Part shown: in pieces, positions 18,705-32,000 of the stretch
Numbering within the stretch: position 1 is the stretch's first letter
How the letters are laid out: the number at the start of each line of letters is the position of its first letter
NCBI RefSeq assembly: GCF_000270205.1
Contig: NC_015913.1
Coordinates: forward strand, 840,001-872,000
Length of the DNA: 32,000 nucleotides
DNA from: Candidatus Arthromitus sp. SFB-mouse-Japan
GTDB lineage: Bacteria; Bacillota; Clostridia; Clostridiales; Clostridiaceae
Reading direction: 5' to 3'
Notes under the pieces: model-generated
Database searches by the model: none
What the model saw: only the letters and a program-made list of their open reading frames with translations
Told to the model about the DNA's origin: nothing
Program-made: the position numbers and the translations under genes

Positions 18705-20945
18705 TTATATAAAAACATATTTTGATTGTTCCTCATAATCAAGTCCCTTATTTAAAAAATGTTCAATAACTTCTTTCATATTTACCTTAATTACTTTAAA
18801 ATTATATTTTCCATTTCTATATTCATTTGTTATTCCATCATCATAATAATAAGTCCCTTCTGCAACATTTCCATAAACATTAAAAGTTACAGTATTTGGT
18901 CTGTTTTTAGTATTTAAATACTTTTCTTCATAAGTTGGTATTATACTTCCCTCTCTAATAAAAATAATGACTGTATTTAAATCACATTTTAATCTGTATC
19001 TCTGCCCACCATTATAAATTTTATTAGTCATAAAATCATACCATTTACCCTTCGGAAGATAAACAGTTTTATATATTTCACTCTTGTGCAATACAGGAGC
19101 AATTAATATAGAATTTCCAATCATAAATTCTTCTTTCATATTAATAACATTTATATCATTTTGATATTCCATGATTAGAGGCCTAAACATAGGAAGACCA
19201 TATTTATGAGATTCATAAAAACATGTATAGATATAAGGTATTAATCTGTATCTAAGTTCTATAGCATTCCTTGCTATTTTCTCAGCTCTAAAACCAAAAG
19301 ACCATGGCTCCTGCCTTCTTGTATATTTATTTGAATGATTCCTAAAAATAGGAAGAAATGTTCCAACTTGCATCCACCTTATAAATAATTCCTCATCACA
19401 ATCTAGCGAAAATCCCCCAACGTCATTCCCAACAAAAGAAAAACCACTAATTCCTAAGTTACAATTCATAGATATGGACATCCGAAGTTGACTCCATAAA
19501 CTCATATTATCTCCAGTCCAAACTGATGTATATCTTTGACCACCAGAATATATGGCTCTACTCATAGAAAAACTTCTTAAATTTGGATTTAATTCTTCTT
19601 GTGCTTCATAGGAACATCTGCTCATTTCAAATCCATATCTATTATGAAACTCCTTATGCTCTAAAACACCATAATCACTATTATGTATACAATTTTCAGG
19701 TATAGTTTTAAAATCATTATTAAATACACATGGTTCATTCATATCATTCCAAATTCCATCTATATTATAGTCAGATATAAATTTTTTGAGTTCACTCTTC
19801 CACCATTCCCTCGATTGTTTATTTGAAAAATCAGGAAAGGAACTATCATTAGGCCATACAGCTCCAATATATACAGTGCCATCAGGATTCTTTACAAAAT
19901 GATCACCTTCTATACCATTTTTATAAATATTATAATTTTCATCAACTTTTACTCCAGGATCTAATATTGTTATAGTTCTAATTCCTTTATCTTTTAAAGT
20001 TTTTATAAGTGATTTAGCATCTTCAAACTCTGGAACTTTAAAAGTCATAACTCTAAAACCATCCATATAATCTATATCAAAGTAGATTACATCAATCGGA
20101 ATTTCCTTATCTTTAAATGTATTTACTACATTAAGAATTTCTTTACTATTCATATAACTAAATCTATTTTGTTGATATCCGAGACTCCATAATGGTGGCA
20201 TATCCATTTTACCTGTAAGATTTGCATATTCACAAATAACTTTTTTTATATTTTTACCTAATATGAAGTTGTATTGTATATGACCACCTATAGCTCCAAA
20301 AAATATTCTATCTTCATAACTTTTACCCATATCAAAAAAACTTCTAAAGCTGTTATCAAAAAATATTCCATAAGTTTTTTGATCGTTCAATGCAACATAA
20401 AAAGGTATTGTTTTATAATAAACCAATGATTCATCATCTGTCTCTGGATCATCAATATTAAAATTTTCTATATAATAACCCTTTTTATTTAAATCTCCAC
20501 CTTTTTCTCCAAATCCATAGTAAGCATAACAGTCATCAATTTTTGAAATATAAACACATCCATCTTCATCTTTAAATGATGGTTCAAAATCTTCGCATAA
20601 AATTTTGCCAGAAATATCTTTAAACATAACTCTTGAGTCAATTTTGTTAATGCACGTTATTATTTTATCTCCAGATATAACTATTTCATCTTCTATATTA
20701 TGGATTGTAAGAGTTATGTCTTCACTTTTTAATACAGTTGAATTTGTATTTGATTTTTCATCGCAAATACCAGCAATAAATATAGATACAATATTTTGAT
20801 TAATGTATTCCACACAAACTTTTCTAGAATTATAAATTATAGTTGTTACGTTACCTTTTGAAATAAATTTTTCATAAATAAGAGAGTTGCCTTTATATGA
20901 TTTGAATTTTTGATTTAAATGCTCTCTATACTTTAATTGTTCCAT
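18705..20945 (-). CDS. GH31 family glycoside hydrolase (alpha-glucosidase-like), cytoplasmic
   Basis: 746 aa with no signal peptide. The GH31 nucleophile motif DGIWNDMNEP and the acid/base region SVWTGDN are present. RBS AGGAGA is 8 nt upstream of the ATG. Confidence 0.88.
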   Translation of the reverse strand: MEQLKYREHLNQKFKSYKGNSLIYEKFISKGNVTTIIYNSRKVCVEYINQNIVSIFIAGICDEKSNTNSTVLKSEDITLTIHNIEDEIVISGDKIITCINKIDSRVMFKDISGKILCEDFEPSFKDEDGCVYISKIDDCYAYYGFGEKGGDLNKKGYYIENFNIDDPETDDESLVYYKTIPFYVALNDQKTYGIFFDNSFRSFFDMGKSYEDRIFFGAIGGHIQYNFILGKNIKKVICEYANLTGKMDMPPLWSLGYQQNRFSYMNSKEILNVVNTFKDKEIPIDVIYFDIDYMDGFRVMTFKVPEFEDAKSLIKTLKDKGIRTITILDPGVKVDENYNIYKNGIEGDHFVKNPDGTVYIGAVWPNDSSFPDFSNKQSREWWKSELKKFISDYNIDGIWNDMNEPCVFNNDFKTIPENCIHNSDYGVLEHKEFHNRYGFEMSRCSYEAQEELNPNLRSFSMSRAIYSGGQRYTSVWTGDNMSLWSQLRMSISMNCNLGISGFSFVGNDVGGFSLDCDEELFIRWMQVGTFLPIFRNHSNKYTRRQEPWSFGFRAEKIARNAIELRYRLIPYIYTCFYESHKYGLPMFRPLIMEYQNDINVINMKEEFMIGNSILIAPVLHKSEIYKTVYLPKGKWYDFMTNKIYNGGQRYRLKCDLNTVIIFIREGSIIPTYEEKYLNTKNRPNTVTFNVYGNVAEGTYYYDDGITNEYRNGKYNFKVIKVNMKEVIEHFLNKGLDYEEQSKYVFI

Positions 20946-21054
20946 TTTGGTTATCTCCTAAATTTTTCTCTAGTCTAACACAAATATTTAAATATGTTTT
21001 TATCTTGATGTAACAATGTTGAATTTAACCACATAAAGTATAATTTTTTCATAT

Positions 21055-21091
21055 AAAAAAAGCACATGGCTTATAAAATATAGCCAAATGC
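21055..21091 (-). terminator. Rho-independent terminator after pdxT
   Basis: GC-containing imperfect hairpin: GCACATGGC (21062-21070) pairs with GCCAAATGC (21083-21091), with a 2x2 internal mismatch. On the minus strand a run of 7 T follows (21055-21061). Confidence 0.6.
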
Positions 21092-21095
21092 CTTT

Positions 21096-21674
21096 TTATT
21101 CAGATTTGAATTTATAACATTTATCTAAAAAATACTTATGTATCCTATTATCTTTTGTTAATTCTGGATGAAAAGATAATGCAATTTGATTTCCATACTC
21201 AACGCCAACAATCTTATTATCAACTTTACTTAAAATTTTAGCTTTAGGATCTACATAAGATATATAAGGTGCTCGTATGAATCTCATTGGAAAAATTCCA
21301 ATACCTTTAACTTCATGCTCTATGGCAAAACTTCCAATTTGTCTTCCATATGCATTCCTCTTTATTGTCATCGGAATAGTACCAAAACATATATCATTCT
21401 GATCTTCAATTCTTTCTGCAAGAAGTATAGCTCCAGCACAAGTTCCCATAACAGGAAATCCTATTAATATTCTTTCTCTAATATCATCAAATATATCAAG
21501 CTCGTATAAAAGTTTTCTCATCACCGTGCTTTCACCGCCTGGTAATATTATCCCATCAATTTCATTATTCATATGAGATTTTTGTCTTATCTCAAAACAT
21601 TCTATTCCAAGATTATTAAGTACATTTTCATGTTCAATAAAAGCCCCTTGTACAGATAAAACTCCTATTTTCAT
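21096..21674 (-). CDS. pdxT: Pyridoxal 5'-phosphate synthase glutaminase subunit PdxT
   Basis: 192 aa. Class-I glutamine amidotransferase with MGTCAGAILLA (nucleophile Cys) and SFHPELT (catalytic His/Glu). It starts 6 nt after pdxS. Confidence 0.95.
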   Translation of the reverse strand: MKIGVLSVQGAFIEHENVLNNLGIECFEIRQKSHMNNEIDGIILPGGESTVMRKLLYELDIFDDIRERILIGFPVMGTCAGAILLAERIEDQNDICFGTIPMTIKRNAYGRQIGSFAIEHEVKGIGIFPMRFIRAPYISYVDPKAKILSKVDNKIVGVEYGNQIALSFHPELTKDNRIHKYFLDKCYKFKSE

Positions 21675-21680
21675 ATACGA

Positions 21681-22556
21681 TTATCTACCTCTCTCAGACA
21701 TAAGAAGTTCAATTTCATTTGGATTGATTCCAACCATAGCTTCTCCAAGATTTTCTGACAACTTAGCAATTATTTTGCTATCATTATAATTTGCGACAGC
21801 TTGGACAATTGCTGTGGCTCTCTTTACAGGATCTCCAGATTTAAAAATTCCTGATCCTACAAAAACTCCTTCTGCTCCAAGTTGCATCATAAGTGCTGCA
21901 TCCGCAGGTGTAGCAACTCCACCAGCCGCAAAATTAACTACAGGTAATTTTCCATTTTCATGAACATAGCATAAAAGATCATAAGGAACTTGAAGTTCTT
22001 TAGATTTATTATAAAGTTCGTCTTTTCTCATAGATAAAATTTGAGATATTTCACTATTCATTTTTCTTATATGTCGTACTGCTTGTACAATATCTCCTGT
22101 GCCAGGCTCGCCTTTTGTTCTTATCATACTAGCCCCTTCATTGATTCTTCTCAAAGCCTCGCCCAAATCTTTTGCACCACAAACAAAAGGAACACTAAAT
22201 TCTCTTTTATCAATATGGAACACATCATCAGCTGGTGACAAAACTTCACTTTCATCAATATAATCAATCTCTATTGCTTCTAATATTTGTGCTTCTACAA
22301 AATGACCAATACGACACTTTGCCATAACAGGAATAGAAACAGCCTCTTGAATACCTTTTATCATTTTTGGATCACTCATACGAGATACTCCTCCAGCCGC
22401 ACGAATATCAGCAGGTATACGTTCTAAAGCCATAACAGCACAAGCTCCTGATGCTTCAGCGATTTTTGCCTGTTCAGGTGTCGTAACATCCATAATAACT
22501 CCACCTTTTAACATTTGCGCTAACTCTTTATTTAACTCATAACGGTTATTATCCAT
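21681..22556 (-). CDS. pdxS: Pyridoxal 5'-phosphate synthase lyase subunit PdxS
   Basis: 291 aa. The highly conserved PdxS/SNZ sequence is present ([51 protein letters not shown]). Confidence 0.97.
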
Positions 22557-22595
22557 TTTTACATGTCCTTTCTTTTAATATTAAATTTGAATATA

Positions 22596-22604
22596 ATTAT
22601 ATCA
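22596..22604 (-). promoter_or_regulatory. Candidate extended -10 promoter for pdxST
   Basis: The minus strand reads TGATATAAT (TGnTATAAT) about 40 nt upstream of the pdxS ATG. The -35 is weak (TTCTTC). Confidence 0.35.
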
Positions 22605-22640
22605 CTCCATGCTATTAAGAAGAACATACAAAAATGTATC

Positions 22641-25600
22641 CTAAGTTAAAATTACTTCTTTAATATTTTTTTCAATATCTTCTTTGTGAATTATTCCAGA
22701 ATATTTATTGAAAAACTCCCTAATTTCCTCAACCAATTGTTGTTTTTTATAATATCTGCTTTCATTTTTATCTCCAAAACGAGAAACTGGTTTCATAATT
22801 TCATTAATTTCTGTGCCTATTGATTTAACCTCAGCATCTCTGAACATATTTTTAATGTATTTCCTAAACAAATCTTCATTTAATCTTTGTTCATTTATAA
22901 GTCTTTTAATGTCTTTTTCCATTTCTTCTGAAACAAATTCTTTCCAATCATTAATTACTTCATCTTCAACATTAACTTTATTAATGAAATCAGTAATAAG
23001 TTTCTTCTTGCTTTTTAACATAAATTTATCAATAAGATCTTTTTTATTCCTCAAATCTGGACTTGATTTTACAGCTTTATCTATTGCAACAAAAATTTCC
23101 TCATCTTTATTATTTGATTCGTGATATTTTATAAGTAAATTTAAAATATAATCGATATTAACTTCAATTTGTTTTACAAGTTCCATTTCAAAAATAATGT
23201 CATCATTAATATTTTCTTTATCATTATTTTCAACATTTCTTACTTTTTCATATAAATCATTGTACTTACCTGTGAAATCTTGAAATTCAATTTCTGTTAA
23301 AATTTCATTTCCTTCAAAATCATCAAAACTTGACAATATATTTCTAAGTTTTAAAATTTCACCGAACAAATATATGAATTCTTTTTCTGCATTCTCTCCA
23401 ATAATTTGGTCAGAAAAATTATTAACTAATTCTTCAATCATTTCCCCGTAACCCCTATGATAATTCCCATTCTCATCTTCATATCCGTAATAATAATCCT
23501 CATAAGTTTTCAAAATTACAGTTTCTCTTATACTATTTCTTTCACTATCATTACCAAAAATAATAAGTGCATCATCTGTTTCCTTTATTAGATCCCTGAA
23601 ACAAACAATATTACCGAATTTCTTTACTGAATCTAATATCCTATTTGTCCTACTAAAGGCTTGAATAAGTCCATGGGCCCTTAAATTTTTATCAACCCAT
23701 AAAGTATTTAAAGTTGTAGCATCGAAACCAGTCAAAAACATATTTACAACAATAAGTAAATCAAGTTTTCTATTTTTCATTTTACGAGAAACGTCTTTAT
23801 AGAAATTTGGGAATTTTTCGCTTGAGGTATCATATGATGTACCAAATTCTTTATTGTAATCTTTTATTGCCATTTCCAAAAAATCTCTTGAAGAATCTGA
23901 AAGTCCATCTGTATCATCAGAATTTTCATCATCCATAAATTCAGCGTTACTTTCTTCATTAACTCCATAGCTATAAATTAGAGATATTTTTAATTTCTTA
24001 CTTGGATCTTCTTCCATTTGCTTTTTGAATTCCAAATAATATTTTTTTGCTGCCTCAATACTTGAAACTGCAAAAATCGAATTAAATCCATTAAATCCAT
24101 AACTTCTTTTTGTTTTTTGATTAAAATGCTCTAGAATATATTCAGTTACAGATGAAATTCTCTGAGGTGCAAGCAAAGCCTTTTCATAATCTATAGCACT
24201 AACTTTCTTGTCTGATATATTTTCTTTTATTTTCATCGTATTTATATAATCAATTTTAAAAGGAAGTACATTTCCATCATTTATGGCATTTACAATTGTA
24301 TAAGTATGAAGTCTATCTCCAAAAACATCTTGAGTTGTCTGCAAATCTTTAAATTTTCCATTAACAGAATTTTCTTCAAAAATTGGTGTTCCTGTAAATC
24401 CAAAAATAAAGTAATTCTTAAACTTCTTTGTAATAGCTCTGTGCATATTTCCAAATTGGTTTCTGTGGCACTCATCAAAAATCATTACAATATTTTTGTT
24501 ATAAATTGGATGATTTTCATTTTTTGAAATGAACCTATCTAATTTTTGAATTGTTGTAATTATAATTTTGTATTCATGGAAATTACCATTTTCATCTTTG
24601 TTCTCTAATTGTCTTTGTAGAGTTTTAGTGTTTTTACTTCCATTTGCCGAACCTTTTTCATAACGTTCATACGCTTCGATTGTTTGATAATCCAAATCCT
24701 TTCTATCAACAACAAATAAAACCTTGTCTATATACTCAAGTCTTGATGAAAGCTGAGAAGTTTTAAAAGATGTTAGAGTTTTTCCACTACCTGTGGTATG
24801 CCAAATATAACCCCCTGCTTTTATAGTTCCCATTTTTTTATAATTTTTAGAAATTTGTATTCGTTTTAATATTTCTTCTGTAGCCATAATTTGATAAGGT
24901 CGCATGACAACTAGTTTATTTTCAGATGTAAATACACAATACTTAGTTAAGATATTTAAAAGTGTGTGTTTTGCAAAAAATGTTCTAGCAAAATCAACAA
25001 GATCTGGAATTATTTTATTTTTACTATCTGCCCAAAAGCTAGTAAACTCGAAGGAATTACTAGTTTTATTCTTTTTGTTGGCTTTTTCCCTATCCTTAAT
25101 TGCAGATTCACGAGTTGTGTTTGAGTAATATTTCGTATTTGTACCGTTTGAGATAACAAAAATTTGTATATATTCATACAAACCGTCTCCAGCCCAAAAA
25201 CTATCTCTTTGATATCTTTCAATCTGATTGAAAGCCTCTTTTAAAGCAACCCCTCTTCGCTTAAGTTCAACATGAACAATAGGAATTCCATTAATAAGTA
25301 TCGTTACATCATATCTATTTTTATATTTTCCATCATCTGTTGAATATTGATTGATAACTTGAAGGAAATTATTATGTATATCTTTTTTGTCAATCAACAA
25401 AATATTTTTACTTGATCCATCATCTCTTTTTAAAATTTGAACAAAATCCTCTTGTATTTTTCTTGACTTTTGTACAATTCCCTCATTTTTATTAGCGATA
25501 CAATCTTTATAAAAATTTTTCCACTCATTATTTGAAAATTTGATATTGTTTAATTTTTCGAGTTGGAATCTTAAATTCGAAATCATTTCTTCAGAAGAAT

Positions 25601-25763
25601 TAATATCTTTTGCATATTGATATCCTTGAGAAGATAAAATTTCTATAAATTCCTTCTCCAAAGATGCTTCACTTTGGTAAGCTCCAGATCGTTTTTTTTG
25701 AGATGTATATTCAGTTACAAGCGTACTTTCATCTGTAGAAACTATAATATTATAATTGCTCAT
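22641..25763 (-). CDS. hsdR: Type I restriction enzyme R subunit (HsdR), Type IC-like size class
   Basis: About 1040 aa. The N-terminal nuclease motif is D...VHVELKRRG (PD-ExK). Helicase motif I is TTGSGKTLTS and motif II is FDECHRNQFG. The track starts at a TTG at 25766. The ATG at 25763 lies 7 nt after AGGGGA. A 91-bp gap separates it from hsdS. Confidence 0.93.
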   Translation of the reverse strand: MSNYNIIVSTDESTLVTEYTSQKKRSGAYQSEASLEKEFIEILSSQGYQYAKDINSSEEMISNLRFQLEKLNNIKFSNNEWKNFYKDCIANKNEGIVQKSRKIQEDFVQILKRDDGSSKNILLIDKKDIHNNFLQVINQYSTDDGKYKNRYDVTILINGIPIVHVELKRRGVALKEAFNQIERYQRDSFWAGDGLYEYIQIFVISNGTNTKYYSNTTRESAIKDREKANKKNKTSNSFEFTSFWADSKNKIIPDLVDFARTFFAKHTLLNILTKYCVFTSENKLVVMRPYQIMATEEILKRIQISKNYKKMGTIKAGGYIWHTTGSGKTLTSFKTSQLSSRLEYIDKVLFVVDRKDLDYQTIEAYERYEKGSANGSKNTKTLQRQLENKDENGNFHEYKIIITTIQKLDRFISKNENHPIYNKNIVMIFDECHRNQFGNMHRAITKKFKNYFIFGFTGTPIFEENSVNGKFKDLQTTQDVFGDRLHTYTIVNAINDGNVLPFKIDYINTMKIKENISDKKVSAIDYEKALLAPQRISSVTEYILEHFNQKTKRSYGFNGFNSIFAVSSIEAAKKYYLEFKKQMEEDPSKKLKISLIYSYGVNEESNAEFMDDENSDDTDGLSDSSRDFLEMAIKDYNKEFGTSYDTSSEKFPNFYKDVSRKMKNRKLDLLIVVNMFLTGFDATTLNTLWVDKNLRAHGLIQAFSRTNRILDSVKKFGNIVCFRDLIKETDDALIIFGNDSERNSIRETVILKTYEDYYYGYEDENGNYHRGYGEMIEELVNNFSDQIIGENAEKEFIYLFGEILKLRNILSSFDDFEGNEILTEIEFQDFTGKYNDLYEKVRNVENNDKENINDDIIFEMELVKQIEVNIDYILNLLIKYHESNNKDEEIFVAIDKAVKSSPDLRNKKDLIDKFMLKSKKKLITDFINKVNVEDEVINDWKEFVSEEMEKDIKRLINEQRLNEDLFRKYIKNMFRDAEVKSIGTEINEIMKPVSRFGDKNESRYYKKQQLVEEIREFFNKYSGIIHKEDIEKNIKEVILT

Positions 25764-25857
25764 CAAACCATCCCCTATAAAAATTATTTATTTCCTAAAA
25801 TATCTTCAAAAAAACCAAAAAATTATCTATATAATAATCGTAATATTTTTATAAACT

Positions 25858-27045
25858 TCAATCTTTATGCTCTGAAATATTTTTAAAAGTCAAAAGTTTG
25901 TCCCTGTAATACTCATATTGTTTCTTCCTCGCATCAATTTCTGCCGGAAGTCCTTCGGATATATCATTACATAATTTATCAAATTTATCGAGAATTGAGA
26001 CTATTCTTTCCTGTTCTGGAAGTGAAGGAACACATACAGGAAATTCAATAATCACATTTTGATTAAGATGTTTTATTGTTCCACCAGTTAACCTACTTCG
26101 TGCAAAATTCATCAATTTGGGTGATCTTAAATAATAAAACAAATATTTACTTAGAACAACACTTTCATCATTGCATCTTACAACAAATATACCACTATTT
26201 AATGTTGATGGTTTTATAAGCTTATTAATATATGCAATTTTTCCTAGCGTACCATCCTTAGTTACTAAAATATCTTTTTCCTTAATCTGAATATTTTTAT
26301 CTTGTAAATACCTTTCTTCTGATACAAAATAACATTTAGAAAAATCAACGCTACCATTTACAAAATTCACACCTGTTATTAGTTGATATTTTCCGTCTAT
26401 TAAATACTCTTCCTTTGTTAAACCTTGCCAACCTATTCTAGCCTTTATTGTTGCAATATCCTTCAATTTTACTCTTTCAATATCATCACCAAAAGTAAGC
26501 AAACTATCTCTATAGAATTCATATTGTTTCCTTCTTGCTGTAAGCTCTGCTGTAAGCTCTGCTGTAAGCTCTGTAAACAAATCTAAAATATGTACAATCT
26601 CTTCTTGTATTTCTAATGGTAGGATTGGGATTTTAATATTACTTATATCTCTTCCATAAACATGAGCAACACCAGCTCCTTTTTTAAGTGAATAAATTAA
26701 ATCCTGTTTATTTTTTAAAAAATAATATGTGTACTTTACACTTAATATGGAATAATCTCTTATATCCACAGTAAAAGAATCCGCACAAAATATTGGTTTG
26801 TCCCAATAACTTACAAATCCCGCATAAGCACCTGAACCAGCTACTGTTATACAATTACCATTCCTATTTGAAACATTGTGATAAAATGCTGGTTTTTGTC
26901 CTCCAGATATTACTGGTACCTCACCCCCAACTGCATTTGTTGATTTTATAGACTGCCCTCTCTTAAAACCACAAAGTTCTCCCAATTCTTTCCACTCAAC
27001 ACCATCAGGACAAAGTTTTTCTATTAACTCATCAAGTCTACTCAC
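25858..27045 (-). CDS. hsdS: Type I restriction-modification specificity subunit (HsdS) with two target-recognition domains (TRDs)
   Basis: Two variable TRDs are separated by a conserved central helix (ILDLFTELTAELTAELTARRKQYEFYRDSLLTF). A homologous C-terminal helix follows (ILDKFDKLCNDISEGLPAEIDARKKQYEYYRDKLLTF). The track starts at a TTG at 27060. I prefer the GTG at 27045, which has GAGGGGGA 5 nt upstream and overlaps the hsdM stop as GTGAGTAG, suggesting translational coupling. Confidence 0.9.
   Translation of the reverse strand: MSRLDELIEKLCPDGVEWKELGELCGFKRGQSIKSTNAVGGEVPVISGGQKPAFYHNVSNRNGNCITVAGSGAYAGFVSYWDKPIFCADSFTVDIRDYSILSVKYTYYFLKNKQDLIYSLKKGAGVAHVYGRDISNIKIPILPLEIQEEIVHILDLFTELTAELTAELTARRKQYEFYRDSLLTFGDDIERVKLKDIATIKARIGWQGLTKEEYLIDGKYQLITGVNFVNGSVDFSKCYFVSEERYLQDKNIQIKEKDILVTKDGTLGKIAYINKLIKPSTLNSGIFVVRCNDESVVLSKYLFYYLRSPKLMNFARSRLTGGTIKHLNQNVIIEFPVCVPSLPEQERIVSILDKFDKLCNDISEGLPAEIDARKKQYEYYRDKLLTFKNISEHKD
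26538..26575 (-). repeat. Perfect 12-bp x 3 tandem repeat inside the hsdS central conserved region (encodes ELTA-ELTA-ELTA / TAEL repeats)
   Basis: The plus strand reads GCTGTAAGCTCT three times (26538-26549, 26550-26561, 26562-26573), followed by a partial unit. The repeat is in frame and encodes the TELTAELTAELTARR segment. Confidence 0.95.
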
Positions 27046-28612
27046 TCTTGTCCCCCTCAATTTCTGCGATAATCTTATCTATCTCTTTCCTCAAAACTTC
27101 CTCTCGTGCAACAATCTCTTTAATCTCTTCGTTTAATTTTACAATATCAATTTTCTCTCTCGTATCTTCCTGCTCAACATAAGTGGACACAGAAAGATTA
27201 TATTTTTCATTCCTTATTTCCTCAAGGCTTACGAGTTTCGCAAAATATTCAATATCTTTTCTTTCAGCATAAGCCTTAACAATATTCTCTATATTTTCTT
27301 TGCTGAGTTTATTGTTATTAGTAGCTTTTTCAAATTCCTTAGATGCATCAATAAACAATACATTCTTATCTTCCTTACTTTTTTTGATAACCATTATGCA
27401 AGTTGCAATACTTGTTCCAAAAAATAAATTACTTGGGAGCTGAATAATAGTATCAATAAAATTTCCTTCAACTAAATATTCTCTAATCTTTTGCTCCGCT
27501 CCCCCTCTATACATAATTCCAGGGAAACATATAATCGCCCCAACCCCATTAGGTGCAAGCCATGAAAGTGCGTGCATAATAAAAGCAAGATCAGCTTTAG
27601 ATTTTGGAGCCAAAACTCCTGCAGGGGCAAACCTTTCATCGTTAATTAATACGGGATTATTATCCCCTTCCCATTTTATTGAATAAGGAGGATTGGAAAC
27701 TATTGCTTCAAAAGGTTCTTCATCAAAATGTTTTGGATTAATAAGTGTATCCTCACATTCAATTTTAAATTTTTCATAACCGATATCATGTAAAAACATA
27801 TTAATTCTACAAAGATTGTAAGTTGTTATATTAATTTCTTGTCCAAAATATCCACGTCTAACTCCATCTTTACCAAGAATTTTAGCAGCTTTTAATAAAA
27901 GCGAACCACTCCCACAACACATATAATAAATTTTATTGACCTCCTTCTTACCATGAACAACAATTCGTGTAAGAAGTTCAGAAACCTCTTGAGGAGTAAA
28001 AAACTCTCCCCCACTTTTTCCAGCATTAGAAGCATACATACTCATCAAAAACTCGTAAGCATCACCAAAAGCATCAATAGTATTTTTTCTATAATCTCCA
28101 AGATTCATATTCCCAATACCATCTAAAAGTTTAACAAGTTTTTCATTTCTCTTAGCAACAGTTGAACCAAGCTTATTGCTATTCACATCAAAATCATCAA
28201 ATAATCCTTTGAGATCTCCTTCACTTTCATGACCCTTAGCCGAATCTTCAATATTTCTAAAAACTTTTTCTAAAGTTTCATTTAAATTTTCATCATCTTT
28301 TGCCCTAGCTCGAACATTTTCAAAAAGTTCTGAAGGAGGGATAAAGAACCCTTTATCATTAATCATTTCTTCTCTAATTCCTTCAGCCATTTCATCACTA
28401 ATTTTTGCATAATCAAAATCAGTACTGCCTGCTTCAATCTCATTTCTATTAATATCATTTTTAAAATTCTCAGATATGTAACGATAAAACATTGTACCTA
28501 AAACATAAATTTTAAAGTCCCATCCATCAACACTTCCTCTTAACTCATCAGCTATACTCCATATTGCCCTGTGTAATTCATCTCTCTCTTGTTCCTTTTT
28601 ATTATCCGCCAT
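27038..28612 (-). CDS. hsdM: Type I restriction-modification N6-adenine DNA methyltransferase subunit (HsdM)
   Basis: 524 aa. N-terminal HsdM_N-like helix bundle. Motif X is GEFFTPQEV. Motif I region is KIYYMCCGSGSLLL. Motif IV is VSNPPYSIKW. RBS GGAG is 8 nt upstream of the ATG. Confidence 0.92.
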   Translation of the reverse strand: MADNKKEQERDELHRAIWSIADELRGSVDGWDFKIYVLGTMFYRYISENFKNDINRNEIEAGSTDFDYAKISDEMAEGIREEMINDKGFFIPPSELFENVRARAKDDENLNETLEKVFRNIEDSAKGHESEGDLKGLFDDFDVNSNKLGSTVAKRNEKLVKLLDGIGNMNLGDYRKNTIDAFGDAYEFLMSMYASNAGKSGGEFFTPQEVSELLTRIVVHGKKEVNKIYYMCCGSGSLLLKAAKILGKDGVRRGYFGQEINITTYNLCRINMFLHDIGYEKFKIECEDTLINPKHFDEEPFEAIVSNPPYSIKWEGDNNPVLINDERFAPAGVLAPKSKADLAFIMHALSWLAPNGVGAIICFPGIMYRGGAEQKIREYLVEGNFIDTIIQLPSNLFFGTSIATCIMVIKKSKEDKNVLFIDASKEFEKATNNNKLSKENIENIVKAYAERKDIEYFAKLVSLEEIRNEKYNLSVSTYVEQEDTREKIDIVKLNEEIKEIVAREEVLRKEIDKIIAEIEGDKSE

Positions 28613-28647
28613 TTTATCAACTCCATTTACATTTCAAATTCAAAACC

Positions 28648-28653
28648 ATTATA
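28648..28653 (-). promoter_or_regulatory. Candidate -10 element for hsdMS(R) transcription
   Basis: The minus strand has a perfect TATAAT about 36 nt upstream of the hsdM ATG, just downstream of the terminator that closes the preceding gene. I could not identify a good -35. Confidence 0.3.
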
Positions 28654-28680
28654 ATATACCATTGATTTTTATTGTAGGTA

Positions 28681-28717
28681 TAAAAACAAAAAAAGACAAT
28701 TAAAACTAATTGTCTTT
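28681..28717 (-). terminator. Rho-independent terminator of the RloC-like gene
   Basis: Perfect 11-bp stem: AAAGACAATTA (28692-28702) pairs with TAATTGTCTTT (28707-28717), with a 4-nt loop. On the minus strand TTTTGTTTTTA follows. The stem overlaps the stop codon at 28716-28718. Confidence 0.75.
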
Positions 28718-30938
28718 AAGGATGTATCTTATATTTTTTAGAATATTCTTTGAAATGTTTTTCACCATGATTTTTTTCTAAACATGACTTAAAATCATTA
28801 ATTAGTTCGATCTTAGATATTCCACTTAAATCATGTTCAAAATCATCAATTGAATGAGAGTTAACATCACATGCTTTTTTGAAAAATGGACTATTTTCAT
28901 AAAAACCACCTTGATCTAAACAATTAAATTTAATATATGTTTCTAAAATTCTCCTCATAGGATTATATAATATATCTGATGATGCGTTATTATTATAAAG
29001 ATTTCCCAATTCTTTCCAAAGCAAATCATAACTTGTTGTAAAATCATCTTCTCTTTTCTTTACATATTCAATATTAGTTTTCTTACCATCCGATATTAAT
29101 TTAATAAATTTACTAATTTTATTATCATTTATATATTCTAATTTATCATCTTCATACTTTCTATCATGTTTAACATTTAAATAGAAATGGCAATTATGAG
29201 TTAGAATAATTAATTTTTTATCATCTTCTCTTTCAATCTTTCTCATAATTCTTTGCAAATCATTAATTATCAAATACTGTTTAGTATCATCATTAGAACT
29301 CATAGGGTCATCAAATACCATAACCCTAATACTCCCAGGTACTTCTCTTTCAATATCCTTAAATTGCTCAATGAAATATAAAAATGCAATTATATTTTTT
29401 TCGCCAGTAGATAATTCCTTAACACTACGATACTTAGATGATCTTAAACATTTCACCCTATAAAAGGCCCTCTCTTTCTGTTCATTCTCATTATAAAGAG
29501 AAAGTTCAAATGATACAAATGTTCTTAATTTCTTATTTATATTATTAACTGCCTTTTCTACATTTTTCATTCTATTTTTTAAATTTATAATATCTTTTTT
29601 AAAATTATCTATTTCCCCCATAAGTTTTTTACGTGCTTCTTCTTTATTAAAATAATCTTCTTCTACATTTTTTTTATGATATTCTAAATTATTCATTTTT
29701 TCAATTTCAACACCATATTTAAAACCATCAAGATATTTTTTGATTTCATTATATCTTATTTTTTCTCTTGCTTCTTTTTTTATTTTTAATAAATCATTTG
29801 AATTATGTTCTCTAACTAACTTATTATATTCTGCAATATAATCCGATAATTTTTTATCTTCATTTAATAATTCAGGTAAATCCAATTCAATTTCATCAAA
29901 AAGTTCACTTCTCTTTTTTTTCAATTTCTGAATATATTTTTCTAACAAGTTAATATAATATAATTTCTTTTCATTTATTTTCTTATCTATTTCTTGGACT
30001 CTTTTATTTTTATCGGTATATAAATTATTTAAATCAATATTAATTGATTCTAGTATTTTTTTATATCCTTCTAATTCCTTACATTTATCCTCTATCTTAT
30101 TTTCAAATTGTTTTATTTCTGTTCCAGAAAAATAATTTTCCAATTCATTTAATATATCCGCTGTTATTATACTTCCACAAAATCCACATTTTTCACCGAC
30201 CTTATGGATGTCAAGTCCATACTTAGCAAAATTAGACTTCTTAGGATCGTTATTTAATTTACTAATAATTTTTTGGGGTTTGACTCTATCTTTTAAAATT
30301 TGCTCTACCTCATTTGATATCTGAATAATATTTATAGGTGTTTCGTATATCTCATTAAGATTTTTTTTCTCTAATTTTAAAATATTATTAAACTTATCAA
30401 TTTCATATTCAGATAATAGACAATTATTTCCCATATTTTTAATATCATTTTTTATATCATTAATATCATATTTATTTCCTTCATGTATTTTATAGCTGCA
30501 ACCTTTTATTTCACTTGCAAAACGTTTTAAAGCATTATCTATATATATTTTTTGTTTTTTAAATTCAGCTATCCTTTCTTCTTTCATACTAAATAAATTT
30601 TTCTCATTATTTAAAGGATTGTTTATCTTTTTATTAATTTCTTCAATCTTTTTTTGATTTTCTAGAATTAATGACTCTTTTTTTTCAATTTCTTTATTTA
30701 TTTTAGAATTTTCATTACTTAGGGTAATACAATTTAAATTTTCATTTTTACCTATTAAAATATCAAATCCCTGAAAAATGCGAATATCATATTTTTCATT
30801 ATTTTCGTATTGTTTTTGTAATAAATTTGTAATGGTTGATTTTCCTGTTCCATTTTTACCATATACAAAATTTACTTTCTTATCAAATTCAATTACATTT
30901 TCATTAAATAGATCTTCATTGCTTAAATCTATTTTCAT
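28716..30938 (-). CDS. rloC: RloC-like anticodon nuclease candidate: AAA_13/ABC-type ATPase with long coiled-coil insert, CxxC zinc hook and C-terminal PrrC-type tRNase motifs
   Basis: 740 aa. Walker A is GKNGTGKST (aa 27-35). A Lys/Glu/Asn-rich coiled coil of about 420 aa spans aa ~75-495 and carries CGFC at aa 251-254 (nt 30177-30188). ABC signature LSTGE is at aa 509-513, Walker B RVMVFDD at aa 538-544, and the H-loop LTHN at aa 579-582. The C-terminal domain has RRILE (aa 662-666) and NSH (His695, nt 28854-28856), which matches the Arg-x3-Glu...His pattern of PrrC/RloC. RBS AGGGGGTG is 8 nt upstream of the ATG. Confidence 0.7.
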   Translation of the reverse strand: MKIDLSNEDLFNENVIEFDKKVNFVYGKNGTGKSTITNLLQKQYENNEKYDIRIFQGFDILIGKNENLNCITLSNENSKINKEIEKKESLILENQKKIEEINKKINNPLNNEKNLFSMKEERIAEFKKQKIYIDNALKRFASEIKGCSYKIHEGNKYDINDIKNDIKNMGNNCLLSEYEIDKFNNILKLEKKNLNEIYETPINIIQISNEVEQILKDRVKPQKIISKLNNDPKKSNFAKYGLDIHKVGEKCGFCGSIITADILNELENYFSGTEIKQFENKIEDKCKELEGYKKILESINIDLNNLYTDKNKRVQEIDKKINEKKLYYINLLEKYIQKLKKKRSELFDEIELDLPELLNEDKKLSDYIAEYNKLVREHNSNDLLKIKKEAREKIRYNEIKKYLDGFKYGVEIEKMNNLEYHKKNVEEDYFNKEEARKKLMGEIDNFKKDIINLKNRMKNVEKAVNNINKKLRTFVSFELSLYNENEQKERAFYRVKCLRSSKYRSVKELSTGEKNIIAFLYFIEQFKDIEREVPGSIRVMVFDDPMSSNDDTKQYLIINDLQRIMRKIEREDDKKLIILTHNCHFYLNVKHDRKYEDDKLEYINDNKISKFIKLISDGKKTNIEYVKKREDDFTTSYDLLWKELGNLYNNNASSDILYNPMRRILETYIKFNCLDQGGFYENSPFFKKACDVNSHSIDDFEHDLSGISKIELINDFKSCLEKNHGEKHFKEYSKKYKIHP

Positions 30939-31140
30939 ATTAACTACACCCCCTATTTTTGATAATATTTAATTATCTATAAAATTTCTCAATTAAAATT
31001 ATACAACATCACCTTATAACATGAATTTTGTAAATGCATATGTTTATATGTACTTATTTCTTTATTTTCTTTAAATAAATCAATAGATTTCATAATATAA
31101 TTTAAATACTTCTCGTAAATATCTAAAGATATCCATTTTA

Positions 31141-32000
31141 TTATTTTGATCTTATCTGTAGATTCAATGTAAAGAAAAAATCACCGCTATCCTCGAAAAT
31201 CTCAAGCATATGATATCTAGATGTACTCGGCGAATCGAATTTAGATTTATAATATAAATAATTTTCTAATATTTCATTATGATAAATTTTATCCAATAAA
31301 ACAACTTCTCCTGAGTTTTTAGTCACCATAATTCCACCATTAACTGAATATTTTCCATCCCATTCTTCGGAAGGGAAAAATCCAAAACATATTCCATATA
31401 AAAAATCTATTAACTTTTTTCTTAGAAAAACTTCGTCATTTCCATGATTCGACTTTAAAAACGCTTTTTGTAAATCCTTTTCATTTTCAACATAAGAATA
31501 AAGCAATGCATTGGCTAATAATTTATCCATCGATGAATCTATTAACCTAATATTCCTTTCCAAAGTATTACTAACGATTTTATAAAATTCAATTTTACCT
31601 TCAAGTTCTTTGATCTTATAAATCCTATCTAACAATTTCTTTTTTGTTTTTATACGATTAACTTCTTGCATTTTATCTTTATCAAAACCTTGAACTTTAT
31701 GCATGAAATTCGTATGCTTACTTGCATTCAATAATGTTGCAGGACTTCCAAATTGAGATTTGAGACTATATGTAATATTAACATCCTTACAAATTTTGTT
31801 ATCCTTTACATTTGCACCAAGATCTGCTTTACTTTTAGCTTTACCTTTAATGCTATATCCATCTGTAAAATTTTCAATAAATTCATTTAGTGAGGGAAGC
31901 TTTATTGAACCTCCGTTCAACGGTTTCTTATTAATAAGTGTTTTTAATAAGAATTCTTTCGCTTTTATTACAGCATCCAAAGATACCACACCAATCTTTT
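31141..32000 (-). CDS. Probable type II restriction endonuclease, HpaII-family-like; the 5' end probably lies beyond the right edge
   Basis: The track ORF begins at a GTG (31989), but the frame stays open to the window edge (..K-I-G- upstream). The segments LKSQFGSPATLLNASKHTNF and DSPSTSRYHMLEIF...LNLQIR resemble, from memory only, conserved blocks of the HpaII restriction-endonuclease family. It was not verified by search. Confidence 0.4.
   Translation of the reverse strand, partial: KIGVVSLDAVIKAKEFLLKTLINKKPLNGGSIKLPSLNEFIENFTDGYSIKGKAKSKADLGANVKDNKICKDVNITYSLKSQFGSPATLLNASKHTNFMHKVQGFDKDKMQEVNRIKTKKKLLDRIYKIKELEGKIEFYKIVSNTLERNIRLIDSSMDKLLANALLYSYVENEKDLQKAFLKSNHGNDEVFLRKKLIDFLYGICFGFFPSEEWDGKYSVNGGIMVTKNSGEVVLLDKIYHNEILENYLYYKSKFDSPSTSRYHMLEIFEDSGDFFFTLNLQIRSK

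Follow-up and report, generated by a model that had tools for sequence, protein, structure and literature searches.

A TAEL-type repeat in the central helix of a Type IC-like HsdS from a segmented filamentous bacterium and a sister allele one unit shorter

The control of Type I recognition by repeat number in the specificity subunit HsdS has been described since 1989. EcoR124I, whose HsdS contains two TAEL repeats, recognizes GAAN6RTCG, whereas EcoR124II, with three, recognizes GAAN7RTCG, the two being related by unequal crossing-over at a 12-bp repeat (PMC3874165). In hybrids of EcoR124I and EcoDXXI, engineered changes in repeat number shift the gap as predicted (PMC3874165). For the natural NgoAV system, PacBio sequencing assigned GACN6TGC to the form with one LEAT repeat and GACN7TGC to the form with two (PMC6789123). 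Tetra-amino-acid repeats of this type (TAEL, LEAT, SEAL or TSEL) are characteristic of Type IC HsdS proteins and serve as a hallmark of them (PMC10030836; PMC3874165). Atack et al. mention the TAEL tract and raise the idea of phase variation, without analyzing the tract itself (PMC7383803).

The window, by which we mean the whole 32,000-nucleotide stretch of DNA analyzed here, contains hsdM, hsdS and hsdR as intact, full-length open reading frames on the minus strand (Table 1). This gene order is typical of Type IC. The Type I S, M and R assignments agree across Pfam, PDB, NCBIfam and PADLOC. The preliminary description of this locus, made from the letters alone, had identified the hsdS frame as a specificity subunit, and its match to Pfam Methylase_S (7e-48) supports this; the protein comprises two target-recognition domains (TRDs) with a central helix between them. 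HsdR carries the Pfam domains HSDR_N, SWI2_SNF2, T1R_D3 and EcoR124_C, the last at 1.5e-53. EcoR124I is the best solved-structure match for HsdS, for HsdM (E 4.9e-192) and for HsdR (E 6.6e-250). Across 509 aligned residues, HsdM shares 57% identity with its EcoR124I counterpart, whereas the Type IA EcoKI HsdM is matched at only E 3e-11. The mechanical hsdS frame runs from a TTG at 27060 to 25858 (400 aa), and the GTG start that we list is the one used in the gene calls of public assemblies (L002-L004), where it overlaps the hsdM stop by 8 bp. Judged by these matches, the locus clearly groups with Type IC (the EcoR124I family), in line with the earlier assignment as Type IC-like, and the tetra-amino-acid repeats expected in the HsdS central region are present as TELTAELTAELTA between ILDLF and RRKQY.

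Table 1. Coordinates of the features discussed in the text (positions in the window)
Feature	Position	Strand	Support or remark
Perfect period-12 array, 3 units GCTGTAAGCTCT (plus) / AGAGCTTACAGC (sense)	26536-26573	-	Tandem Repeats Finder, sequence, shuffles
13-residue linker TELTAELTAELTA (T158-A170 of the 395-aa protein)	26536-26574	-	Ungapped alignment to EcoR124I FTALTAELTAELNMRKKQY
hsdR, motor and nuclease subunit, 1041 aa, EcoR124_C terminal domain	22641-25766	-	Pfam, PDB
hsdS, Type I specificity subunit, 395 aa, GTG start at 27045	25858-27045	-	Pfam PF01420, PDB 7bst_A
hsdM, N6-adenine methyltransferase subunit, 524 aa	27038-28612	-	Pfam N6_Mtase and HsdM_N
AAA_13 (PF13166) protein, 740 aa	28716-30938	-	PADLOC defence candidate PDC-S06, 1.3e-199
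HpaII-like endonuclease	31141-31989		Cut by window end

Within hsdS, a period-12 array ranks first by score among the 20 rows that Tandem Repeats Finder returns for the window (score 76, 3.2 copies, 100% matches). Direct reading places the first copy of the plus-strand unit GCTGTAAGCTCT from 26537 and the end of the third full copy at 26572, and the perfect periodicity overshoots the three units by one base per side (26536-26573). The longest perfect period-12 run, counted as positions at which each base equals the base 12 nt upstream, is 26 in the window. The longest run never exceeded 13 (mean 8.5) across 300 mononucleotide shuffles, nor 12 across 300 3-mer-block shuffles, and no other period from 4 to 30 exceeded 14 in the real window, that 14 being a period-24 harmonic. 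A chance origin of the array is ruled out. The preliminary description had reported a perfect 3 x 12 bp tandem repeat, which Tandem Repeats Finder, direct reading and the shuffles all confirm; the span given for it, 26538-26575, was displaced by +1/+2 nt, a trivial error, and the repeat peptide it quoted is the minus-strand translation.

On the minus strand the codons run GAT TTG TTT ACA, then GAG CTT ACA GCA three times over, then AGA AGG, and the peptide across the array reads D L F T, three times E L T A, and R R K. The array thus codes (ELTA)x3, equivalent to TEL-TAEL-TAEL-TA, and forms the length-variable part of the HsdS central helix. A second coding reading over the repeat was dismissed, as the plus strand has no open reading frame of at least 80 aa there.

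The linker TELTAELTAELTA is flanked by two anchors that are conserved family-wide, IVHILDLF and RRKQYEFYR. The central helix pairs with EcoR124I HsdS FTALTAELTAELNMRKKQY with zero gaps (phmmer; 7bst_A, E 5.6e-42), and the nucleotide-identical 12-bp units sit in the D1 helix at the EcoR124-homologous position. This residue-for-residue pairing with the EcoR124I TAEL repeat upholds the earlier placement of the array in the conserved helix that separates the two TRDs. Given this gapless pairing, the window allele corresponds to the two-TAEL (N6) state, with two full TAEL units and the helix length of EcoR124I. The same alignment rejects an equation of the window allele with the three-TAEL state of EcoR124II. 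The apparent ‘third’ unit is accounted for by the flanking residues (TEL... and ...TA), which happen to carry the period on.

We consider it highly probable that the repeat is a tetra-amino-acid array of the TAEL type, that it lies in D1, the central coiled-coil helix of a Type IC HsdS, and that it sets the spacer of the recognition sequence. The D1 helix would act as a ruler between the two TRDs. One 12-bp unit encodes four residues, roughly one helical turn, and each added unit would move the bipartite half-sites one base pair further apart, as in EcoR124I/II and NgoAV. Nucleotide identity among the units would allow whole units to be gained or lost through replication slippage or unequal recombination, events that would keep the reading frame. 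The single strand over the array has a fold energy of −3.3 kcal/mol (z = −0.16), which is nothing unusual, and hairpin-assisted slippage was rejected on these values. Since the single strand folds unremarkably, the likely route would be simple slippage or else unequal recombination involving units of identical sequence.

A protein search returned one 99%-identical HsdS (P0001) that reads FTELTAELTARRKQY and is therefore one unit shorter. It is encoded on an ENA metagenome contig (L001; ERZ14651025, 17.5 kb, ~3.9x coverage) that is 99.5% identical to window positions 18801-28740 over 9.9 kb. In a base-by-base comparison, the 37 substitutions all fall in hsdM, hsdR, pdxS, pdxT and intergenic DNA, and the sole difference within the 1.2-kb hsdS is the precise loss of one 12-bp unit. 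The linker is 9 residues long in the sister allele versus 13 in the window allele. By analogy with the characterized systems, the two alleles should recognize the same half-sites with spacers that differ by 1 bp, and the unit change would have arisen by slippage. The metagenome contig lacks a ~5-kb block upstream of hsdM that is present in the window lineage (HTH, C5-methylase, R.HpaII-like and AAA_13 genes), and for this reason we take it to come from a separate lineage rather than to be a second assembly of the same one.

Closer to the window, the exact 395-aa HsdS is encoded by five contigs from complete genomes and draft assemblies, all five of which have three units by definition. They include AP012209.1 (1.59 Mb) and the draft assemblies AFXW and AFXS, to which the window is 99.96-99.98% identical; we take these to be mouse segmented filamentous bacterium (SFB) genomes (‘Candidatus Arthromitus’, or Savagella). 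Because all five carry three units, the array is stable on the timescale that separates them. Such invariance suits a fixed structural repeat that is just part of how this coiled coil is made. Helix length would then be stable, no functional switching would take place, and the two-unit contig would reflect either an artefact of assembly or a neutral deletion that is rare. The two-unit allele is known from that single low-coverage contig, and a lack of hairpin-forming potential in the array also fits. An artefact, however, is an unlikely source of the shorter allele, since single short reads and k = 55 assembly graphs should span the 38-bp array and make a collapse improbable.

Further copies were sought in several ways. 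An exact-flank DNA pattern with one to six units had no match in the metagenome contigs; protein-guided scans of genome and metagenome contigs found no further copy of this hsdS, only distant alleles at no more than 48% full-length identity; and a look-up of protein clusters yielded nothing further, with the 395-aa protein missing from that collection and the shorter protein a singleton in it. The contigs with the closest HsdM relatives (L165-L167) have a different N-terminal TRD and stop just before the hsdS central repeat, which leaves their unit number unreadable; their ends probably reflect an assembly-graph branch at the conserved region. In two of them (L165:7568-8083 and L167:3872-4387), which break off right where the central conserved region starts, the N-terminal TRD of hsdS is completely different beside a 98% identical hsdM, and the flanks are SFB-like (SpoIVA, GpsA, Der). 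These hsdS genes seem to indicate TRD swapping between SFB lineages.

The region upstream of hsdM also varies. The block of HTH, C5-methylase, HpaII-like and AAA_13 genes (28499-32000; L002:3277-8570) that is absent from the sister contig is bracketed in L002 by a 242-bp direct repeat (96% identity) made up of the hsdM 5' end and upstream DNA, and recombination at hsdM appears to have inserted or deleted it. A long coiled-coil region of the AAA_13 protein contains the motif CGFC, and near the C terminus of the protein is a stretch RRILE...H; these features are reminiscent of PrrC and RloC, anticodon nucleases associated with EcoprrI and other Type IC systems. In SFB-mouse-Yit (L002), the A5 tract of the AAA_13 gene (30813-30817) is A6, which shifts the frame.

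To place the array among its relatives, we used 160 loci with HsdS relatives, collected by protein-guided scans of one-genome-per-species contigs and metagenome contigs; the hosts include Bacteroidales, Campylobacter, Clostridia, Streptococcus, Gardnerella, Treponema and others. Linker length was measured between the same two conserved anchors, and 143 central linkers were scored. They are 5, 9, 13, 17 or 21 residues long in 2, 5, 77, 56 and 3 cases, respectively, with no intermediate lengths, and the C-terminal partner helix is 17 residues long in every case of the same survey. Of the 36 genes that encode exactly TELTAELTAELTA, 29 keep a perfect period of 12 over 37 bp or more. The unit itself exists in at least six synonymous versions across lineages (GAG CTT ACA GCA, the same ending in GCG, GAA CTC ACG GCG, GAG CTT ACC GCA and others), and units of the 17-residue class include GAG CTG ACC GCC and GAG CTA ACA GCG. 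A few genes encode TELTAELTAELTA with diverged units, with spans of 17-27 bp, which shows that this peptide can be encoded by units that are not identical in nucleotides. The TAEL array is a family hallmark that is common, usually nucleotide-perfect and not special to this genome. Units that are the same within a gene and different between genes indicate ongoing turnover by repeated expansion and contraction.

Unit number also varies between close relatives. When alleles were clustered at 97% amino-acid identity or above over 365 flanking residues spanning both TRDs, 16 groups had at least two members, and unit number was polymorphic in five of them: linkers of 9 and 13 residues occurred together twice, 13 and 17 twice, and 17 and 21 once. 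Four of these polymorphic groups are additional to the SFB pair. With roughly a third of near-identical allele groups polymorphic, unit changes appear to be common and recent across the family. The preliminary description had proposed a slippage switch and had held that the proposal would fail if copy number never varied. Copy number does vary, both in the SFB allele with one unit fewer and in the five polymorphic groups. What stands of the switch is the repeat and a natural one-unit variant; what weakens it is the uniformity of the five mouse-SFB contigs and a change in HsdM, described below, that casts doubt on activity.

The survey bears on the fixed structural repeat as well. Such a repeat needs no identical codons, yet most genes for the same peptide are near-perfectly periodic with a lineage-dependent unit version, and the members of the polymorphic groups, which come from independent assemblies, differ by whole units. 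We consider a fixed repeat very unlikely. At the other extreme, the array could be a high-frequency, phase-variable contingency locus that changes length within a clonal SFB population often enough for methylomes to be mixed, whether as a phasevarion or to hedge bets against phage. Units that are homogenized family-wide and the frequent polymorphism between near-identical alleles are compatible with this idea, which is the one raised by Atack et al. (PMC7383803). Against this, the five assemblies are invariant and the array has only three 12-bp units and no structure-forming potential that we could find; classical simple-sequence contingency tracts should slip much more frequently than an array of this size. 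High-frequency switching of this kind seems to us quite improbable. Spacer setting by the D1 helix, with gain or loss of whole units, is our preferred reading of the array.

A broader proposal is that the array is an evolved, mutable ‘dial’ across the Type IC-like HsdS family rather than a passive structural repeat. Either recurrent gain and loss or selection in favor of mutability would keep the units of each gene identical in nucleotides, and lineages would step their recognition spacer through at least five quantized states (5, 9, 13, 17 and 21 residues). If so, the one-unit difference within SFB would produce distinct methylomes and a barrier to DNA exchange. We put this forward tentatively, as a possibility that falls short of an even chance.

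Two variant architectures turned up among the relatives. Many of the closest HsdS proteins (P0002-P0120; L007, L013, L030 and others) are 580-620 aa long, with three TRDs and three helix segments, and in these the variable TAEL array is in the first helix only, the other two being fixed at 17 residues. ‘Extended’ HsdS proteins with three TRDs have been noted by Atack et al. (PMC7383803). A half-size HsdS at L168:7568-8167 (199 aa) consists of a single TRD that runs into TKLTNELTNELTNELIARRKQYEYYRDKLLTF and then a stop codon, and adjoins an 82%-identical HsdM; it resembles the homodimeric EcoR124I(delta50) and NgoAV type of subunit, which recognizes palindromic sites.

Whether a unit change has consequences in the window lineage depends on the activity of the enzyme. 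Motif I of HsdM reads KIYYMCCGSGSLL (YYMCCGSGSLL), in which residue 230 (codon 27923-27925, minus strand) is Tyr in place of the motif I Asp (D230Y), a single GAT-to-TAT change. The motif is Y-D-P-x-x-G-S-G-S-L-L in ~126 HsdM genes from related loci. Among the 120 closest database HsdM proteins, all 120 have Asp and 117 have Asp-Pro (116 YDPACGSGSLL and one YDPCCGSGSLL); YDMCCGSGSLL is found in three, with identities of 99%, 98% and 82%, whose contigs belong to SFB or close relatives. The P-to-M and A-to-C changes of motif I are therefore lineage traits, and D230Y is confined, among the homologues examined, to the window lineage, including the sister contig. D230Y may impair AdoMet binding in a restriction-modification locus that is intact in other respects. 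Because it alters an otherwise invariant aspartate of the AdoMet motif, we regard the activity of the enzyme in the window lineage as uncertain; if D230Y impairs the system, unit changes there would have no phenotype.

It is conceivable that the whole system is inactive and decaying in a reduced genome, with the unit loss in the sister lineage a product of neutral drift. Besides the replacement of an aspartate found in all of the homologue sets above, this reading can draw on an A8 tract at the 5' end of hsdR (codons 22-24; 25692-25699, minus strand), which is A9 in two draft SFB assemblies (L003 and L004), where the resulting frameshift leads to a gene call of 1006 aa from a downstream start. 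The A8/A9 difference is either a phase-variable ON/OFF restriction tract or a homopolymer sequencing error. Several observations are at odds with decay. All three hsd genes are intact and full length in the window, motif IV of HsdM (NPPY) is intact, and hsdM differs from its 98%-identical relative at 22 synonymous versus 6 non-synonymous codons, which fits purifying selection. Furthermore, hsdS has accumulated zero substitutions between the two lineages versus the 37 in flanking genes. Decay is unlikely in our view, though less so than a fixed repeat.

The mechanism at issue here is already known and has been confirmed in natural populations; what is new is the host and the natural allele pair, and the understanding of the mechanism is unchanged by the present findings. 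The SFB alleles add a one-unit pair to the small set of systems with HsdS helix-length variation, namely EcoR124I/II and NgoAV. The concerted evolution of units across the family and their frequent polymorphism are a useful quantitative addition rather than a new kind of system. SFB is an unculturable, host-restricted symbiont, and our literature search found no paper with an SFB methylome. It is now a target of in-vivo genome editing, for which the Type I specificity of a strain matters in DNA delivery, and the unit count and HsdM D230Y would be the first things to check.

Among known systems, the locus shares with Type I systems that use simple sequence repeats or inverting hsdS genes (Atack et al. 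2020; SpnD39III-type shufflons) a heritable change of specificity through hsdS repeats. Those systems rely on homopolymer or pentanucleotide ON/OFF tracts or on recombinase-driven shuffling of TRDs, whereas the SFB change is in-frame and affects helix length only; the list of open reading frames in the window contains no recombinase and no silent hsdS copies. NgoAV, a Type IC system of Neisseria gonorrhoeae, is closer in that the number of tetra-amino-acid repeats in the center of its HsdS varies naturally between strains. Its repeat is LEAT, however, of a different phase and sequence, and a poly-G frameshift truncates NgoAV HsdS. Furthermore, the N6 and N7 spacers of NgoAV were shown by PacBio (PMC6789123), whereas for the SFB pair a spacer difference is predicted.

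EcoDXXI and EcoprrI are Type IC enzymes of the same family and also have the TAEL repeat, in three copies, but their linker is 17 residues long, unlike that of the SFB window allele. The EcoprrI locus embeds an AAA_13-type anticodon nuclease gene, prrC (PMC3874165), and a 740-aa AAA_13 gene lies directly upstream of SFB hsdM. Unlike PrrC, the SFB protein is larger and is encoded outside the hsd operon, and any nuclease role is putative.

The closest counterpart is EcoR124I/EcoR124II (R124/3), which shares the tetrapeptide, the 12-bp unit, its position in the central helix and the gene order, and gives the best match for all three subunits. In contrast to that enterobacterial plasmid system, the SFB locus is chromosomal and resides in a Gram-positive, low-GC host. 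The TRDs differ as well, with HsdS 37% identical overall to that of EcoR124I and mostly so in the conserved regions, and SFB HsdM carries D230Y. Finally, the EcoR124I/II pair has linkers of 13 versus 17 residues, whereas the SFB pair has linkers of 9 versus 13, that is, one versus two full TAEL units.
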